A DNA stretch of 64,000 bases, from IMG/VR virus record IMGVR_UViG_2574180019_000006; one strand, given 5' to 3'. Positions 29,700-56,184 of the stretch are shown piece by piece. The notes below the pieces were generated by a model that made no database searches, was not told the DNA's origin, and worked only from the letters and a program-made list of their open reading frames with translations. Within the stretch, counting starts at the first letter, position 1. Each line of letters opens with the position of its first letter. The position numbers and the translations under genes were made by a program. The DNA is from a virus (Duplodnaviria; Heunggongvirae; Uroviricota; Caudoviricetes).

Positions 29700-30017
29700 G
29701 TATTCCTCCTGATGGCCGTGATGTAGGAAGGCCATCAATCTCCTCTGTTCAAACTGAGTTTTCGACTCAAAAATTACTTTAAAAGGCTATAGCCCATTAC
29801 GTGTGCATTATCAAATTGTGTACGGCATATCACCGTACTTGTAATATAGATGTCATTGTTACTTTTTTCAACAGACAAATACAAGCTATGTTTGCCAATT
29901 GTTAATCACAACCTACCATTTAACCTTTACACCGCAGCCGTAGGCATTTAGGCTATATCACATATAAGAAAACAAGTTGTTTCAGACGATAATTATATAC
30001 GCAAAGGGAACTCTCCA

Positions 30018-30686
30018 ATGACCAAGATCTTTGTGGTTGGCGGCACAAAGGGCGGGCCTGGCAAATCCACCGTTGCCCAGCAAATTGCCGTTTGCCTGAA
30101 AGTCAAAAAGAAGAAGAAGGTTTATATTACCGATATAGATATTCAGCGCACGACAACGAGCTGGTGTGAAGACCGTCGACAGAACGAAGACCTTGAGCTG
30201 ATTCCTTTTGCATACGTTCAGGATGACATCATTAAGCATCTAAAATCGCTTCAGGGTAGAGCTGAGTTTGTAGTGGTAGATGCTGGTGGCTTCGACTCCG
30301 AAATTCAGCGACAAGCGATGCTGATGGCTGACGTTATCATTATCCCGCTGCGTCCTAAGCGTCGTGATTTGAAATCTTTACGTGACATCGATCCTATTAT
30401 CGACAATGTTCGCAATGTAAACGATAAAGTGAAGGTCCGCGCGGTCATGAACCAGTGCCCGGCTTTGCCATCACAAGTGTCTCGCATTCTGGCGGCTAAA
30501 GAGATTGTTGAGACGTTTGGAATCGAGTCTGCGCCAGTCAATCTATATAACCGCAACGTCTATGATGATGCGGAAGAGTCTGGTCGTTCTATCTTTGAAA
30601 TGACCGGTAGCGAGCGCGACAAAAAGGCGGAAGCCGAGTTTGAAGAATTTGTAGATTATCTGTTGAGTCTGGAGGAAGAAGAATAA
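30018..30686 (+). CDS. parA: ParA-family partition ATPase
   Basis: Deviant Walker A motif GGTKGGPGKST near the N-terminus; 222 aa; followed by a small basic protein. Confidence 0.8.
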   Translation: MTKIFVVGGTKGGPGKSTVAQQIAVCLKVKKKKKVYITDIDIQRTTTSWCEDRRQNEDLELIPFAYVQDDIIKHLKSLQGRAEFVVVDAGGFDSEIQRQAMLMADVIIIPLRPKRRDLKSLRDIDPIIDNVRNVNDKVKVRAVMNQCPALPSQVSRILAAKEIVETFGIESAPVNLYNRNVYDDAEESGRSIFEMTGSERDKKAEAEFEEFVDYLLSLEEEE

Positions 30687-49990: not shown

Positions 49991-50194
49991 GTGCGTAAAG
50001 GATGTTTCGGCTCTCTTATCGCTGCTTCTGAAACTGGTAAGGCTTGTCTGGTGTGTCCAGACAAGCCCGATTGTCACCAATCAGCAAAAGAAGTTGCGAT
50101 TTCGATGCATGGGAAGTTCGTAGGCTTCCCCAATGACAAAATCAAAAAAACCAGAAAGGTAAAAACACATGAAGGCACTGATGGTTCGAACTGA
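49991..50194 (+). CDS. Small Cys-rich hypothetical protein
   Basis: 67-aa ORF with C..C...C..C-like spacing; overlaps the start of the downstream polymerase gene. Confidence 0.25.
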   Translation: MRKGCFGSLIAASETGKACLVCPDKPDCHQSAKEVAISMHGKFVGFPNDKIKKTRKVKTHEGTDGSN

Positions 50195-52532
50195 CTTCTC
50201 ACTTGGGGAGTCGGCTCTAAAAGCAGAAAACGCGGTGAAGATTGCCAGAGAAGCTGGCTACACCGCTGTAATTTCAGCAGATAGCATGAATATTGCGAGC
50301 GTTATTCCACTACAACGTGCCGCTGGTGACGACATGGCGGTTATTTGTGGTGTGAAACTAAACATTGTTGATGATCCCACATACGAGCACCGGGCTAAAC
50401 TTGCTAAAGAATCTATGAGATGTATGGAATCATTAGAGCGAGGACGTAACTACTCGTTTACCGCTCTAATTAAAAATGAGAAAGGATATCGCGACATCTG
50501 CGAACTAATGACGGCGGCCAACACACGAGAACAGTTCTACTTTGTACCGCGTCTCTCGCTCGAACAGTTGGTTTCTACATATGCCAAAGGCAACATCATC
50601 CTGCTTACTTCCGACATCGGTAGCGTGTTCCAACGCAACGATTTTGCAAAAATCATAAGCACACTGATTACAGCGGGTGGAAAAGACAACTTCTATAGTG
50701 TGGTTTATCCGCACCCTACCCCATTCTACGACCAGATTAACGTCCGGGCGATGAAAGTCGCCAGCGCATTGAAAATAGAGCCAGTGGCGTTCTATCCCGC
50801 TTATTACGAATCGATCGACGATGCAGACATTAAAGACATTGCGCACATGGTTACGAACAACATCAAAATCGACCAGCCGCATCGTCTGCGTATCCCCCAC
50901 CAGCGAGATAACGCCGTCAATGGTCGCCGCCATCTCCTTGAGGCGCTTAAAGCCTTCTCCGTTCGCATGGATGTGCCGGTAACAGCTGCAATGGCCTCAA
51001 CAACGCAGGATACCATTATCGATGCCTGCACATGGCGCTGGCATGAATTGCCGCCAGCACTGCCAAAGATGGCAGACGACGAGCCTGCAACGCTGATGAA
51101 ACTGGCTGTTGCAGGGCTGCGTAAACGTCTTACCACAAAAGAGTTTGGCTACACACCACCTGCTTCTGAGAACAGGGTTTATGTTGAGCGGCTAAAGTAC
51201 GAAATGGACACGCTGACTCGCCTGGGATTCTGTGGTTACTTCCTGATGGTGCGCGATCTGATGAATCATAGTCGTGAAACTGGCATTCCCGTTGGGCCTG
51301 GTCGTGGTTCCTCTGCCGGTTCTCTGGTGGCGTGGTGCATAGGCATAACCAACGTCGACCCAATCCGTCACGGTCTTCTGTTTGAGCGTTTCATCAACCC
51401 TGAGCGTCTCGACTTGCCGGATGCGGACTTGGACTTCAGCCAGGCACGTCGCCATGAGGTGATCGAGTATCTGAATGAACGCTACGGCGAAGATTACGTT
51501 GCAGGCATTCCGAACTTCACCTACCTGGGCGCAGCCTCTGCACTACGTGATACCGCTCGTATTTATGGTGTGGAGTCCGCAGATATGGCGGTATCAAAAG
51601 AACTGAAGAACGTCGAGGATGATAGCCTTCCATTGGAAGAGCTGCGCGAACAACTGGCAAGTCTCGACAAATACGCAACAAAATATCCTGATGCATTCAA
51701 TGCAGCCTGCAAGTTACAAAGCCTTATGCGTGGCTTTGGTAGACATGCGGCAGGGATGATCGTAGCAGGTGTTCCTCTGACAGAACGTACACCGGTTGAG
51801 CGCCGTGGTGACGCGCGTTGTATCGCATTTGACAAGCGTTACTGCGAGGCTATGGGCCTAATTAAGCTGGACGTGCTTGGCCTGGCAACTCTCGATTTGC
51901 TCGATAGTGCAAAACGCTACATAAAAGAGAACACAGGTGAAGATATCAATCTCGACGCTATCCCACTGGACGATCGCAAGGTTCTGGATGGGTTCGCTGC
52001 AGGGTACACGCAGGGCGTATTCCAGCTGGAGTCCGGCCCCATGCGTAAGTTGCTTAAAGATCTGGGCGGTGGCATCGAGCCAATGAGCTTCAAGACCGTT
52101 GTCGCCACGACCGCACTCTTCCGACCAGGCCCGATTCAATCCGGCATGTTGGACGACTATGTCTCCGTGGCCAAAGGCTTCATGGCTCCACATTCCTTAC
52201 ACCCTATGCTGGACGACATCTCTCGCGACACAAACGGTGTTCTGATTTATCAGGAACAGATCATGGCTGCTACGCGAATCTTGGCGGGGTTCTCAATGGC
52301 GGAAGCAGACTCGGTCAGGAAAGCGATCGGGAAAAAAGATATGGAGAAAATGAAATCCATTGGCGGCGACTTCATTAAGCGAGCGGAGGAAGGCTGTGTG
52401 ACAGTGTCACTGGATGACGGTTCTACGAGAAAAATCCATAAAGCAGCACGCCTACTTTGTGCTGATGGTGAGCGTCGCACTTATGCCGAAGCAATGGCAA
52501 TAAATGCCGACATAACGAGCTTCGATATTTGA
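50169..52532 (+). CDS. DNA polymerase III alpha-like (DnaE family), N-terminal fragment
   Basis: 787 aa; polymerase core motifs (GPGRGSSAGSLVAWCIGIT, LDVLGL, FRPGPIQSG, IYQEQIM); ends with a 45-aa non-homologous tail before the stop. Confidence 0.75.
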   Translation: MKALMVRTDFSLGESALKAENAVKIAREAGYTAVISADSMNIASVIPLQRAAGDDMAVICGVKLNIVDDPTYEHRAKLAKESMRCMESLERGRNYSFTALIKNEKGYRDICELMTAANTREQFYFVPRLSLEQLVSTYAKGNIILLTSDIGSVFQRNDFAKIISTLITAGGKDNFYSVVYPHPTPFYDQINVRAMKVASALKIEPVAFYPAYYESIDDADIKDIAHMVTNNIKIDQPHRLRIPHQRDNAVNGRRHLLEALKAFSVRMDVPVTAAMASTTQDTIIDACTWRWHELPPALPKMADDEPATLMKLAVAGLRKRLTTKEFGYTPPASENRVYVERLKYEMDTLTRLGFCGYFLMVRDLMNHSRETGIPVGPGRGSSAGSLVAWCIGITNVDPIRHGLLFERFINPERLDLPDADLDFSQARRHEVIEYLNERYGEDYVAGIPNFTYLGAASALRDTARIYGVESADMAVSKELKNVEDDSLPLEELREQLASLDKYATKYPDAFNAACKLQSLMRGFGRHAAGMIVAGVPLTERTPVERRGDARCIAFDKRYCEAMGLIKLDVLGLATLDLLDSAKRYIKENTGEDINLDAIPLDDRKVLDGFAAGYTQGVFQLESGPMRKLLKDLGGGIEPMSFKTVVATTALFRPGPIQSGMLDDYVSVAKGFMAPHSLHPMLDDISRDTNGVLIYQEQIMAATRILAGFSMAEADSVRKAIGKKDMEKMKSIGGDFIKRAEEGCVTVSLDDGSTRKIHKAARLLCADGERRTYAEAMAINADITSFDI

Positions 52533-52580
52533 GAATTAATTTATAAGATAAGAAAACAATTTGTTTAGTGAGTCTTAGAA

Positions 52581-53315
52581 ATGCCGAGTACGAAGTACAA
52601 AATCACAGAAGAATGGTTACGTCAGCGTTACATGGTTGACCTGATGAGAAAAGAAGACATTGCCGCCGAAGCTGGTTGCAGCAAGGCAAATATTGACCGC
52701 TTATTAGCCAAATGGGGGATCAGGCGCGGAAACGCGCGGATCTCCGCTACCCCAGCCTGGAATCGTGGCAAAAACAAAAATAATGACGAACGTATGAAGC
52801 GACTCTCCGAAGCCCGGACTGGCACTGGCAACCCTATGTATGGGAAAACCTCGTGGAATGCCGGTCTGCGTGCTGATATCGATGAGCGAGTGGCCACCGT
52901 TTCGAAAAAGCTAACCGGCAGAACAATCCGCGCGGAGACGAAGGAAAAGCTGGCGGCTGCCAAACGCGGAAAGATCGGAGAAGAAGCGAACAACTACAAA
53001 GGTGGCATCATCGTAAAAACCAACGGCTACATGATGCAGCTGGTTGGTAACAATGGAGTTTCGCAATACGAATACGTTCATCGGTTGATAGCGAAAGAAC
53101 GTCTCGGTCGGGAGCTACGTGACGATGAACATGTCCACCATATTAACCGCGATACGGTAGATAACGCCCCTGGGAATCTGGTGGCACTTCCAGAAGACGC
53201 CCACATTCGCCTGCATAGCGAAATGCGTGAAAAGGTATGGAGCTGGGAGCGCCAGCGGGACTGGCTGGCCTCCAATGGGTATGAGTTCGTGAAGATTGAT
53301 GAGGTGACTGAATGA
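52581..53315 (+). CDS. HNH homing endonuclease
   Basis: 244 aa; HNH motif EHVHHINRDTVDNAPGNLVALPEDAHIRLH and NUMOD-like repeats; inserted between the two halves of the polymerase gene. Confidence 0.7.
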   Translation: MPSTKYKITEEWLRQRYMVDLMRKEDIAAEAGCSKANIDRLLAKWGIRRGNARISATPAWNRGKNKNNDERMKRLSEARTGTGNPMYGKTSWNAGLRADIDERVATVSKKLTGRTIRAETKEKLAAAKRGKIGEEANNYKGGIIVKTNGYMMQLVGNNGVSQYEYVHRLIAKERLGRELRDDEHVHHINRDTVDNAPGNLVALPEDAHIRLHSEMREKVWSWERQRDWLASNGYEFVKIDEVTE

Positions 53316-54481
53316 AAATTACCAGTGTAGTTGAAGAGAGCAATGGCCTGACGCACGAACGAGCCGAAGAAATCTGGAATATGTTTGAGAAATCCGGCGC
53401 GTATGCCTTCAACAAATCACACTCTGTTGCTTACTCCTTAATCAGTTATCAATCTATGTGGTTGAAAACTCATTATCCCGCGGAGTTCTTCGCTGCTGCT
53501 CTCACTATTCTTGGCGAAGATAAACACCAGGGGCTGGTTAAAGATGCGCTGACCTATGGTATTCGCGTATTGCCACCAGACGTTAACGTGTCATCTAACC
53601 GAATCGAGATCCGCACGCTTGAAGATGGCAGCCAGGTGCTGTATGCGCCCTTCTCTGCTGTGAAAGGGTGTTCTGAGAATGGCTGCCAAGCCATCATGAG
53701 AGCGCGAGAAAAAGTTGGCGGCAAATTCGAGTCACTGGCGCAATTCGAAGAAGCTGTCGAGAAACGTGCCTGTAATAGTCGAGTGCACGAATCACTGCAA
53801 AAAGTAGGTGCGTTTGCATCCATCGAGCCAGGTAGTCTGCCAGCAACTGATCCAGAGCGTCTCCGCGACCAGGCTGAATTGATGGGAAACCTTGTCATAG
53901 ACGCAGTTAAAGCCTCACGTCCGTTTGAGATGAACCCCAAACGTTCGGCTGAGATTAACGTGCTCATGACACGGATGGCGGCTGAAATGGGATTAGGTGA
54001 TGAACTAATCCGCCCTAGCATTGGCATTAAGCCGAAAATCATGATCATTATGGACAATGCAAACGGCAATGATGCTCGAACCGGTTACTTTATGGAGAAC
54101 GGATACGACGATTTTAAGGCCAAGCTGTTGACGGCTGGGGATTTGCGCATGGGCGATCTCTATGTCACAGGCGTTTGCAAAAAGGTGAAAGACAAAGAAA
54201 AGGACTACACCAAAGACGAGATCGGCCAGTTCACCGACTTTATGCGTGAAGAGATCAATCTGGTGCGCCCGACCTATGTGCTGACGTGTGGTAGCCGGGC
54301 AACGGCATTGTTTAACAACAAAAACAAGCCATCCGATTTGGTCGGCAGGAAGGAGTATCTTCCAGACCTTGACGTTACTGTCTTTTACGGGTTTAACCCC
54401 AACATTCTTTACTTCAGACCTGAAGAGGGAGAACGACTAGAAGCGATATTAGCCGACGTAGCAGAAACTATTAAGTCGTGA
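53312..54481 (+). CDS. DNA polymerase III alpha-like (DnaE family), C-terminal fragment
   Basis: 389 aa; begins near the conserved AYAFNKSHS...YQ..WLK.HYPAEF motif that directly follows the region where the N-terminal fragment stops. Confidence 0.7.
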   Translation: MKITSVVEESNGLTHERAEEIWNMFEKSGAYAFNKSHSVAYSLISYQSMWLKTHYPAEFFAAALTILGEDKHQGLVKDALTYGIRVLPPDVNVSSNRIEIRTLEDGSQVLYAPFSAVKGCSENGCQAIMRAREKVGGKFESLAQFEEAVEKRACNSRVHESLQKVGAFASIEPGSLPATDPERLRDQAELMGNLVIDAVKASRPFEMNPKRSAEINVLMTRMAAEMGLGDELIRPSIGIKPKIMIIMDNANGNDARTGYFMENGYDDFKAKLLTAGDLRMGDLYVTGVCKKVKDKEKDYTKDEIGQFTDFMREEINLVRPTYVLTCGSRATALFNNKNKPSDLVGRKEYLPDLDVTVFYGFNPNILYFRPEEGERLEAILADVAETIKS

Positions 54482-54606
54482 TCCAATAAACATGGCCTCT
54501 ATGGCCATGTTTTCTCTTATCCCCTCATATCCCCTATCCTCGAACTCCTTGCCTTATCATCACAATGATATAATCAATATAAGATGATAAGTAAAAAGGA
54601 AAGCAC

Positions 54607-55038
54607 ATGATCACCGATATTTACGAGAAAATAATGTCTGATCTCGAGTTTGACCGAGACAATCTGGAGGAAGTCTGGCGTAGACAACCCCGCCTTTTAA
54701 TGGAGTATGGCTCAAAACTCGCTCATGCAGAAAGAAGTGTCGCAGAGGCAAAACTTAACCTTGAAGCTGTTGAAGCAAAGCTATACGACACAGAGCGTAA
54801 GAACTTGAGTATGAACGGCATTAAGTTCAACGAATCTGTACTGGACGCTAAGGTTAAAACAAACCCACAGTATCTGTCTAAAAGGCAGAAGTTGGATGAA
54901 GCACGGCACATCGCAGACATATACAAACATGCTGTCGCCGCCTTTTCGCATCGCCGAGACATGATCGTTCAGGCGTCAAAGATGGCCATCGTTGAATTAG
55001 AGCGATTAGGCTCTGAACGCTTTATTACTCCCCGTTGA
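54607..55038 (+). CDS. Hypothetical coiled-coil protein
   Basis: 143-aa ORF carrying the conserved leader AAAGGAAAGCACATG. Confidence 0.4.
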   Translation: MITDIYEKIMSDLEFDRDNLEEVWRRQPRLLMEYGSKLAHAERSVAEAKLNLEAVEAKLYDTERKNLSMNGIKFNESVLDAKVKTNPQYLSKRQKLDEARHIADIYKHAVAAFSHRRDMIVQASKMAIVELERLGSERFITPR

Positions 55039-55155: not shown

Positions 55156-56184
55156 ATGTCTAAGACATTACTTGATTTGCTTAACAAAACTCGTGAAGAC
55201 ATTGCCGCCAAACGTGGTAACAACGTTGATCTGACTCGCTTAAAAGACGGCGTCAACTATATCCGCATCTTCCCGAATAAAGACGACCCAAACGGTAAGT
55301 TCTTCCAGACTTTCGGTATGCACTACGTTAAGTATCAGAACGAGGAAGGTAAAGAAGCAACCAACGCTTATATTTGTGAGCAACATACTCACGGTCGCGC
55401 TTGTCAGCTATGCGAAATGGTGATGGAAGGTCGCGCTCGTCACAAGGGTAACAAAGCAATGGAAGAACGCATCGGTCAAATGCGTGCCACTCCTCGCTAC
55501 CTGGTCAACGGCATTCTTTCTGCTCGTGAGGATTTCGCAGATGCTGAGAAATGCCAGTTAATCGAGCTGCCGTCTACTGTATTCGATGATATCTGCAAAG
55601 CAATCACCGAAGACATCGCTGATGATATCGGCAATCCACTGAGCAAAGAGGAAGGCTACGCATTCCTGATTAAACGTACTGGCTCTGGTCGCGATACCAA
55701 ATATGACGTCTCGCCTAAGCGTAAAGTCTACAAAGGCGATATCGAAGATAAATTCTGGAATACCCAGCATGATCTGATCGCATACGCAAATCAGGCTGAT
55801 GAAACTCGTCTTCTGTCGACAGTTCGCACTATGGGTCGTCTGATTGGCATCGCTGCACCAACTGCCGCAGCATCTGCACCAGCAATTTCCTCAACCGCGA
55901 AAACATCGGCTGCGGCACTACCTGGATTTGGCTCTGTCACTGGTCATACGGAGGGTGCGACTGCTGTAGCTACCGCTCATACCCCAGCTTCTGAACCAAC
56001 CAGTCTGGTTGATGAAGAAATCCTCCGTGCCGTTGAAACTGAATTTAAACCAGAAGCAAGTCCCGCTGCCGTTGCAGTATCAGTCAAAGAGTCTGAAGCA
56101 GTCGCAGCGACATCTGTAGCAGCCGCATCTGCGACGGAAGATGAAGGTCTGGATGACCTACTGAGAGAGCTGGACTCTCTGTAA
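55156..56184 (+). CDS. Single-stranded DNA-binding protein-like (gp32-type, putative)
   Basis: Cys/His cluster CEQHTHGRACQLC, Ala/Ser-rich linker and acidic C-terminal tail EDEGLDDLLRELDSL; in replication module. Family call tentative. Confidence 0.4.
   Translation: MSKTLLDLLNKTREDIAAKRGNNVDLTRLKDGVNYIRIFPNKDDPNGKFFQTFGMHYVKYQNEEGKEATNAYICEQHTHGRACQLCEMVMEGRARHKGNKAMEERIGQMRATPRYLVNGILSAREDFADAEKCQLIELPSTVFDDICKAITEDIADDIGNPLSKEEGYAFLIKRTGSGRDTKYDVSPKRKVYKGDIEDKFWNTQHDLIAYANQADETRLLSTVRTMGRLIGIAAPTAAASAPAISSTAKTSAAALPGFGSVTGHTEGATAVATAHTPASEPTSLVDEEILRAVETEFKPEASPAAVAVSVKESEAVAATSVAAASATEDEGLDDLLRELDSL

Follow-up and report, generated by a model that had tools for sequence, protein, structure and literature searches.

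A DnaE-like polymerase encoded by two adjacent genes, with an HNH endonuclease gene between them, in an SSU5-like phage-plasmid

The subject of this study is a DnaE-like replicative polymerase that is encoded by two adjacent open reading frames (ORFs), with the gene for an HNH homing endonuclease lying between them, in a stretch of 64,000 nucleotides (nt) from IMG/VR virus record IMGVR_UViG_2574180019_000006. This whole stretch is hereafter referred to as the window; all coordinates are positions within it, WIN denotes its own allele, and L and P numbers designate the loci and proteins to which it was compared. The region displays 95 % identity to the Escherichia phages CMS-2020a, PhiR41_1 and Cyrano, 86 % identity to Salmonella phage SSU5, and 100 % identity to plasmid NZ_JBSTRI010000003.1 (L098). 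Judged by these matches, its source is an SSU5-like phage-plasmid of Escherichia coli. The locus is quite probably a 'gene in pieces' that possesses neither intein nor intron, with the polymerase encoded as two adjacent, collinear genes whose products form a two-chain enzyme, and with the homing endonuclease gene situated between them.

This is a known type of arrangement, encountered here in a new gene and a new family of elements; a search of the literature for split dnaE genes in SSU5-like phage-plasmids found no paper. In cyanobacteria, DnaE (Ssp and Npu) is interrupted by a naturally split intein immediately before the CFNKS motif. The window locus concerns the same protein family and the same region of the fingers, with its break falling 32 residues upstream of the equivalent position. 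Whilst the cyanobacterial halves occupy separate loci and are joined by protein trans-splicing, those described herein are adjacent, contain no intein, and presumably yield a two-chain enzyme. The closest precedent is nrdA of Aeromonas phage Aeh1, whose split by mobE was reportedly described by Friedrich and colleagues in 2007. There, an HNH gene (mobE) divides nrdA, and the resulting halves have been shown to reassemble non-covalently (Crona et al. 2011, PMC3045599). The two systems have in common a free-standing HNH gene between collinear halves of an essential gene of DNA metabolism, the lack of any intein or intron, a non-covalent reassembly of two polypeptides (shown in Aeh1, proposed here), and the implication of short terminal segments at the cut. 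They differ in that it is a DnaE-type polymerase that is split in the window, and that the element is a phage-plasmid of the Enterobacterales. Furthermore, the terminal segments in the window are native to a pre-existing module rather than being tails made by the insertion, and the alleles form a natural series, ranging from intact genes to splits that hold endonuclease A, endonuclease B, a remnant or nothing.

Three DnaE loci are also included amongst the 'fractured genes' of marine metagenomes (Dassa et al. 2009, PMC2677866). As in the window, their halves are retained in the original order and locus, with a free-standing endonuclease gene in between and a little non-coding sequence on its 5′ side; start and stop codons overlap where the endonuclease gene meets the downstream half, and loci devoid of the endonuclease also exist. 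Unlike the window locus, however, they are defined by split-intein halves fused in frame around the endonuclease, of which there are none here, and their endonucleases are GIY-YIG or Vsr-like rather than HNH. The model proposed for these genes includes the invasion of an intein-less gene ('step Ia'), as well as later loss of the endonuclease (PMC2677866), and it is to step Ia that the window case corresponds. Free-standing phage endonucleases, such as those of the T4 seg and mob genes, additionally engage in intronless homing with co-conversion of flanking markers (reviewed in PMC2988022), and nuclease genes have been noted at recombination boundaries (PMC10448857). Features shared with homing of the T4 type are the presence or absence of the endonuclease amongst close relatives, flanks that are a mosaic of donor sequence, and an endonuclease gene placed at the boundary of differently related backbone segments. 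By contrast, the putatively co-converted flanks of the window include a stop and a start codon, and cleavage is here only predicted.

Collinearity with intact polymerases and the position of the break

The features of the locus are given below.

50169..52532, + strand: dnaE N-fragment, 787 amino acids (aa); from the ORF list and Pfam (PF02811, PF07733, PF17657)
52395..52529, + strand: 45-aa 'Cys tail', being the N-side of an ~56-aa beta module plus the terminal ADITSFDI; from alignments and AlphaFold2 models
52533..52580, + strand: spacer of 48 nt from the N-fragment stop to the endonuclease start; from sequence and frame analysis
52554..52566, + strand: palindrome AAACAATTTGTTT, one copy of a recurring intergenic motif of the phage
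52581..53315, + strand: gene for the homing endonuclease HNH-A, 244 aa, with NUMOD3 N-terminal and HNH_3 C-terminal; from Pfam and PHROG
53301..53306, + strand: Shine-Dalgarno sequence GAGGTG, located within the 3′ end of the HNH-A ORF and separated by 5 nt from the ATG of the C-fragment that it serves
53312..54481, + strand: dnaE C-fragment, 389 aa; from the ORF list, Pfam, AlphaFold2 and Foldseek
54488..54512, + strand: terminator-like hairpin just past the C-fragment stop; from a consensus scan alone
~52196-53407, + strand: recombinant patch, comprising the junction flanks, the spacer and the endonuclease gene; from 150-nt identity windows and mismatch maps

An earlier reading of the sequence (the original prediction) had listed three ORFs of 787, 244 and 389 aa, all of which are present at exactly the coordinates then given, and had regarded the outer two as collinear parts of one DnaE-type protein. 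The latter is borne out by alignment to the intact, single-gene polymerases of PhiR41_1 and SSU5 (both 1172 aa) and of Cyrano (1168 aa). The window fragments align with these from end to end, at a combined 1176 aa (787 + 389) versus 1168–1172 aa. The N-fragment, which corresponds collinearly to residues 1 to ~782 in intact relatives, contains the PHP domain, the palm/NTPase region and most of the fingers, terminating within the first part of the beta module. The C-fragment provides the last strand of that module (MKITSVVE), the rest of the fingers with the FNKSHS region, a helix-hairpin-helix (HhH) region (HHH_6), and a C-terminus resembling uracil-DNA glycosylase (UDG). The order of domains, PHP, palm/NTPase, fingers and HhH, is that of the bacterial DNA polymerase III (Pol III) alpha subunit according to Pfam, a sequence comparison to the PDB returns 2hnh and 2hpi (E-value of 1e-50), and Foldseek gives an E-value of 1e-17. 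Between the AIGKK and FNKSH anchors the window possesses 69 + 37 = 106 aa, which is 4 aa more than the SSU5 class of intact genes and 8 aa more than the Cyrano class. The cut is clean, because this anchored stretch of 106 aa equals that of the longest intact class, found in Xenorhabdus szentirmaii (L009) and Morganella (L012).

Concerning the break itself, the original prediction requires correction. It had been placed immediately upstream of the AYAFNKSHS motif, but is actually 29 residues upstream, with the motif beginning at residue 30 of the C-fragment. The 45-aa tail of the N-fragment, which begins with a cysteine and had been likened to an intein block, and the 12 residues considered extra at the start of the C-fragment both prove to be native. 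Each residue of the tail (CVTVSLDDGSTRKIH...) has its counterpart in a stretch inside the proteins of intact relatives (GWIDVELEDGTTQRIH... and GWVTLSLKNGGTVEVH...), and the tail is homologous to the GW(I/V)xVxLxDG...H...C.DG segment of intact alleles, whilst MKITSVVE at the head of the C-fragment corresponds to the beta strand IDYVEIVS of the intact protein.

Residues 608-730 and 731-889 of the E. coli alpha subunit align to either side of a 56-aa stretch that is absent from E. coli, and distant homologues with the same UDG-like C-terminus are also without it. In the AlphaFold model of the intact homologue P0001 (mean predicted local distance difference test score, pLDDT, of 91.5), this stretch consists, in order, of a pair of strands, a pair of short strands, a helix and one last strand. 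In the window, the break falls within a surface loop that links the helix to the last strand of this lineage-specific beta module, and MKITSVVE of the C-fragment is that strand. When the end of the window N-fragment is modelled alone, the first four strands and the helix are folded.

The UDG-like domain (~53990-54478, C-fragment residues ~225-389) replaces the OB and tau-binding C-terminus of bacterial DnaE. It is of the family-4 type, with Foldseek template-modelling (TM) scores of 0.72-0.80 to 4zbx, 1l9g and 1ui0 (E-value of ~1e-9), and a weak Pfam UDG match for the window at an E-value of 0.004. In one variant, P0006 (553 aa, from a 49-kb Logan contig), the C-fragment ends after ...EMNPK and is fused in frame to a homologue of the window ORF at 55156-56184, with the UDG-like domain and the small ORF at 54607-55038 deleted.

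Junction alleles and the endonuclease amongst SSU5-like elements

A total of 93 loci from genome and viral collections were classified by the state of the junction, with four more added from diverged C-fragments. Uninterrupted genes fall into three length classes. The split with HNH-A is found in the window, L014-18, L020, L021 and L087, as well as in Enterobacter and Cronobacter plasmids; amongst 5426 complete E. coli genomes, 106 match the region and 23 of these 106 carry this form. A second split type harbours HNH-B, an unrelated endonuclease of NUMOD4-HNH-helix-turn-helix composition, and occurs in a Klebsiella lineage and in L096 and L097. The C-fragments of L096 and L097 are 53-58 % identical to that of the window, and HNH-B is homologous over its full length across lineages. 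Thus HNH-A and HNH-B, which have opposite domain orders, reside at the same junction. In Xenorhabdus hominickii (L008) only a decayed remnant of HNH-B is left within the split. Other split alleles (L019, L091-93, L094 and L095) have nothing but a spacer of 56-73 nt, and this empty form is also present in complete plasmids of ~110 kb from cultured Buttiauxella, Cronobacter sp. JZ38 and Enterobacter sp. CP102.

These empty alleles bear directly upon the suggestion that the endonuclease created the fracture. A split DnaE gene with an HNH gene between its parts is indeed what the window contains, so that portion of the original prediction stands; its causal portion does not, as relatives (L019, L091-93, L094, L095, Buttiauxella and Cronobacter) have their polymerase in two genes with matching ends yet lack the endonuclease, which is the finding that the prediction itself had named as its refutation. 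Given such endonuclease-free split relatives, the fracture is therefore older than the HNH-A copy and stable without an endonuclease. The split is, moreover, shared with lineages whose polymerases are only ~55-65 % identical, and in which HNH-B, its remnant or nothing at all occupies the junction. On these sequence comparisons, it is much older than HNH-A, which is not the inventor of the fracture. A different kind of break is seen in Yersinia pestis NCTC5923 (contig NZ_UAVH01000011.1; L010 and L011), where a rearrangement is suggested to truly disrupt the gene, unlike the orderly split described above.

That the ORF between the fragments encodes a free-standing HNH/NUMOD endonuclease of 244 aa is confirmed by Pfam, PHROG and its pattern of presence and absence. 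HNH-A matches PF13392 (HNH_3, E-value of 8e-8) and PF07460 (NUMOD3, E-value of 2.7e-6), both above cut-offs, and phrog_21964 ('HNH endonuclease'); its HVHH...N...H motif is invariant across seven HNH-A alleles. No match was returned by PDB sequences at E-values up to 1, and a search of 50,697 phage records revealed only distant HNH-domain matches (<60 % identity), with no second insertion site evident. The endonuclease ORFs are intact and evolve under weaker constraint than the polymerase fragments, with omega (the ratio of nonsynonymous to synonymous divergence) at 0.2-0.35 for HNH-A and 0.12-0.21 for HNH-B.

The relationship of the endonuclease gene to its site is best seen from L019 and L020, which are near-isogenic (synonymous divergence, dS, of 0.03-0.05 across dnaE), with HNH-A being absent from the former and present in the latter. 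In their alignment, the endonuclease ORF sits exactly in the spacer, and the final codons of this ORF cover the region that already held the ribosome site of the C-fragment. The context of this ribosome site, AAGGTGAC...ATG, is kept in alleles without the endonuclease, and the 5′ spacer found at 52533..52580 is likewise present in the endonuclease-free L019 and Buttiauxella L099. Within the Buttiauxella spacer, the start context of the endonuclease is followed immediately by a stop (agaaATG TCA TGA), which looks like a deletion footprint.

Outside of the recombinant patch, which spans ~1.2 kb, the window polymerase is 97-100 % identical to intact genes, namely Cyrano for the 5′ part and PhiR41_1 for the 3′ part. 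Within it, identity to Cyrano and PhiR41_1 drops to 37-70 % in 150-nt windows, and that to L018, L019 and L020 is 89-97 %, versus 72-85 % elsewhere. Mismatch maps place the boundaries at 52136-52196 and 53407-53482. Between WIN and L020, dS is ~0.3 for the endonuclease and patch (0.29 for the endonuclease), compared to >1.1 for the backbones. The patch can be viewed as a putative co-conversion tract, this being the pattern expected from homing, and in the backbone of the window the split and the endonuclease most likely came in together, by recombination. In such a scheme, a single recombinant patch would have brought in the endonuclease gene along with flanking polymerase sequence, ~340 nt on the upstream side and ~95 nt on the downstream side. 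The endonuclease would cut alleles that lack it, with repair then copying the gene and its flanks, stop and start codons included, such that an uninterrupted gene would be converted to a split one.

The spacer also contains a palindrome, AAACAAnTTGTTT (extended context TA[AT]G-AAAA[CT]AAnTTGTTT), which has 5 copies in the window versus 0.39 expected. These are at 29970, 35310, 46517, 52554 and 59721 (+ strand); all are intergenic and lie 15-35 nt upstream of the ORF starts at 30018, 35342, 46549, 52581 and 59750. The palindrome is retained in the endonuclease-free split spacers of L019, L094, L095 and L099. It is probably a phage-specific promoter or operator, and the copy at 52554..52566 is a candidate promoter or operator for the endonuclease, the C-fragment, or both. 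A consensus scan of the spacer for a sigma-70 promoter found none. An RNA hairpin that hides the endonuclease start, as for Aeh1 mobE, was also considered and set aside, the fold of the spacer not being significant (-13.4 kcal/mol, z = -1.4); the palindrome more likely acts as a site at the DNA level than as an RNA hairpin. In L091-L093 the spacer is a different one of 63 nt (e.g. L091 4929-4991), with a GC-rich hairpin (GCAGCT...AGCTGC) and no AAACAAnTTGTTT palindrome, and spacers at this junction therefore have more than one origin.

Function of the two fragments and competing readings

The original prediction had left a choice between a two-chain enzyme and a trans-spliced one, and the evidence favours the former: from the sequence comparisons, the polymerase most likely works as a two-chain enzyme. 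Each gene would be translated separately, with the N-fragment ending at its TGA, and the C-fragment making use of its own GAGGTG and of an ATG that overlaps the endonuclease stop. The two chains would then join non-covalently. The first 8-9 residues of the C-fragment are predicted by the structural models to supply the last strand of the beta module, and assembly may thus proceed by strand complementation.

Both fragments are full length in all split loci that span the two ORFs, of which there are at least 20. Between WIN and L020, which are both split by HNH-A, omega is 0.035 for the N-fragment (dS of 1.1) and 0.022 for the C-fragment (dS of 1.5); relative to the Klebsiella allele, the values are 0.04 and 0.02, respectively. 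The tail and head that are specific to the split form show 5 nonsynonymous versus 18 synonymous differences, with a pN/pS of 0.08. C-fragments of 385-397 aa that stand alone are plentiful in public data, down to 53 % identity, in a search that listed proteins of up to ~600 aa; one cluster has 1459 members, and the N-fragment is directly upstream in the loci inspected.

A number of observations weigh against the two-chain enzyme and its arrival by homing. The test for selection close to the junction covers only 86 codons, and selection far from it could partly predate the split, since recombination is seen. The last 8 residues of the N-fragment (ADITSFDI) are disordered when this fragment is modelled alone, as would be expected of a strand that depends upon its partner and equally of a floppy tail. 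The mosaic could stem from ordinary recombination to either side of the junction, with no cleavage by HNH-A involved. RefSeq, furthermore, flags the C-fragment as a pseudogene, by an automatic call based on length.

This last point would accord with an insertion that killed the polymerase of the plasmid, leaving fragments to decay and the element to rely upon Pol III of the host. The Prokaryotic Genome Annotation Pipeline of RefSeq labels the C-fragment on L098 (5064-6182) a pseudogene ('incomplete; partial in the middle of a contig; missing N-terminus'), and further functions for replication are available to the element, RepA being mentioned for relatives (PMC3999498). Decaying fragments should hardly display omega values of 0.02-0.04 in both parts at dS >1 amongst split alleles, however, nor the low pN/pS at the junction, nor full-length ORFs throughout the split loci of Escherichia, Klebsiella, Enterobacter, Cronobacter, Buttiauxella, Xenorhabdus and uncultured lineages, and the ribosome site of the C-fragment is conserved. 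Loss of function is consequently very unlikely, and the RefSeq flag, for which the start is set 16 codons late, is probably wrong; other records call this ORF 'uracil-DNA glycosylase' or 'helix-hairpin-helix domain-containing protein'. There is likewise little probability that both products function without reassembly, with the N-fragment as a self-sufficient polymerase and the C-fragment (HhH plus UDG-like) as an independent accessory or repair factor. Whilst the HhH and family-4 UDG-like domains are separable, and P0006 exists without the UDG-like part, the cut is inside the fingers and leaves the conserved FNKSHS helix region (E. coli alpha 731-889) on the C-fragment, the head of which is a strand of a module whose other strands sit on the N-fragment. 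The two genes are also always adjacent and co-oriented.

Covalent reassembly, be it of protein or of RNA, is far less probable still. For a split intein, the Cys-first tail and the head of the C-fragment would be degenerate halves that ligate the polymerase by trans-splicing, and the original prediction had indeed seen in the tail a likeness to an intein N-terminal block. The tail does start with a cysteine and loosely follows a C-h-x-h-x-L-x-DG pattern, fractured DnaE genes with split inteins and an endonuclease gene exist in metagenomes (PMC2677866), and a real intein is present at another site in more distant relatives (P0024, P0026 and P0030). Nevertheless, the proposed search for Hint blocks in the tail and head yielded nothing: the Pfam Hint and intein models did not match the tail, the tail plus head, or the long intact form at E-values up to 10, with the only hits being non-significant ones to SH3-like and Tudor models (E-values of 0.05-0.24). 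The C-side has no His-Asn plus nucleophile, the head (MKITSVVEESNGL) being without an HN motif and followed directly by a native helix. The cysteine (Cys743; TGT, 52395-52397) is confined to the subclade of the window, and is replaced by tryptophan (TGG) in all other SSU5-like alleles, even in L087 with its 99.6 % identical endonuclease, by histidine in L096 and by phenylalanine in L097. Tail and head total only ~56 aa, and this supposed insert is retained within the mature, uninterrupted protein of intact relatives, where it is internal and confidently folded (SSU5, PhiR41_1, Cyrano, L009 and L012). The intein is hence rejected on the Pfam scan, the non-conserved cysteine and the occurrence of this stretch within intact proteins. 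A group I or II intron that carries the HNH ORF, with RNA splicing restoring a continuous polymerase mRNA, has an equally negligible chance. HNH endonucleases are frequently intron-encoded in phage polymerase genes, and the DNA polymerase intron of Bacillus phage SPO1 encodes I-HmuI. Rfam covariance models for group I and II introns found none at this locus at E-values up to 10, however, and the non-coding sequence amounts to only 48 nt upstream of the endonuclease ORF and 0 nt downstream, too little to house a ribozyme core. The frames of the two polymerase ORFs differ, and each ORF has proper translation signals: the spacer has three stops (TGA, TAG and TGA) when read in the frame of the N-fragment, separating the latter from the HNH-A ATG in that same frame, whilst the C-fragment frame differs, its start overlapping the HNH-A stop (ATGA). 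Endonuclease-free alleles still have a stop, a spacer of 56-73 nt and a new start. The intron is thereby dismissed, on permissive Rfam thresholds and lack of space, and with no Hint model, no intron and a tail that is part of the mature intact protein, the trans-splicing once suggested for this gene finds no support.

Elsewhere in these elements, genuine inteins do occur. That of P0024, P0026 and P0030, distant polymerases with a UDG tail, is upstream in the fingers at ...VVHN|SGMRKLL, and L097 (6017-8300) harbours a RecA gene with an intein bearing a LAGLIDADG endonuclease. The replication module of these elements is, as such, a frequent target of several kinds of selfish element.

History of the junction and its implications

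Trees of the polymerase core place split forms on the deepest branches, as well as interleaved with intact forms in the crown. In the tree of the junction, the Cyrano-type intact allele nests amongst split alleles, and the SSU5 type groups with the empty split of L091. The core and junction trees conflict because of recombination. Two histories fit these data: in one, the fracture is ancient and several re-fusions came later; in the other, it is the intact gene that is ancient, with homing having converted it repeatedly. That intact genes come in three length classes whose indels coincide with the cut point hints at re-fusions.

A bolder proposal, which we consider unlikely although worth stating, is that the beta module arose with the fracture, either as an assembly device derived from a mobile element or as the decayed relic of a split intein, and that the intact genes are re-fusions. 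It is similarly doubtful that, as this would entail, SSU5, PhiR41_1, Cyrano, X. szentirmaii and Morganella acquired their uninterrupted genes secondarily. In its favour, the module is found only in the clade with the split and not in homologues of the outgroup, the core trees have split forms on their deepest branches, the intact classes of 294, 306 and 318 nt differ by indels exactly at the split point, and the Cyrano-type intact junction nests within junctions of split type. Against it, the junction demonstrably moves between backbones, putatively by homing, making tree parsimony a weak argument; there is no Hint signal in the module at the sequence level, and no simple deletion turns a known split allele into a known intact one. 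If true, the module would be the permanent scar of a cycle of fracture, two-chain enzyme, endonuclease loss and re-fusion.

Returning to the two-chain polymerase, correcting its annotation is of practical consequence, as the pseudogene label understates the replication capacity of SSU5-like elements. The split site may also serve as a permissive site in the design of a split Pol III alpha. In E. coli itself there is a natural set of alleles, spanning uninterrupted genes, two types of endonuclease, a decayed remnant and an empty split, and SSU5-like phage-plasmids are common in clinical Enterobacterales, which makes for a tractable test system. The locus thereby opens questions as to how a C-family replicative polymerase tolerates a cut in its fingers, whether a homing endonuclease can spread a fracture by co-conversion, and what becomes of the latter once the endonuclease is lost.

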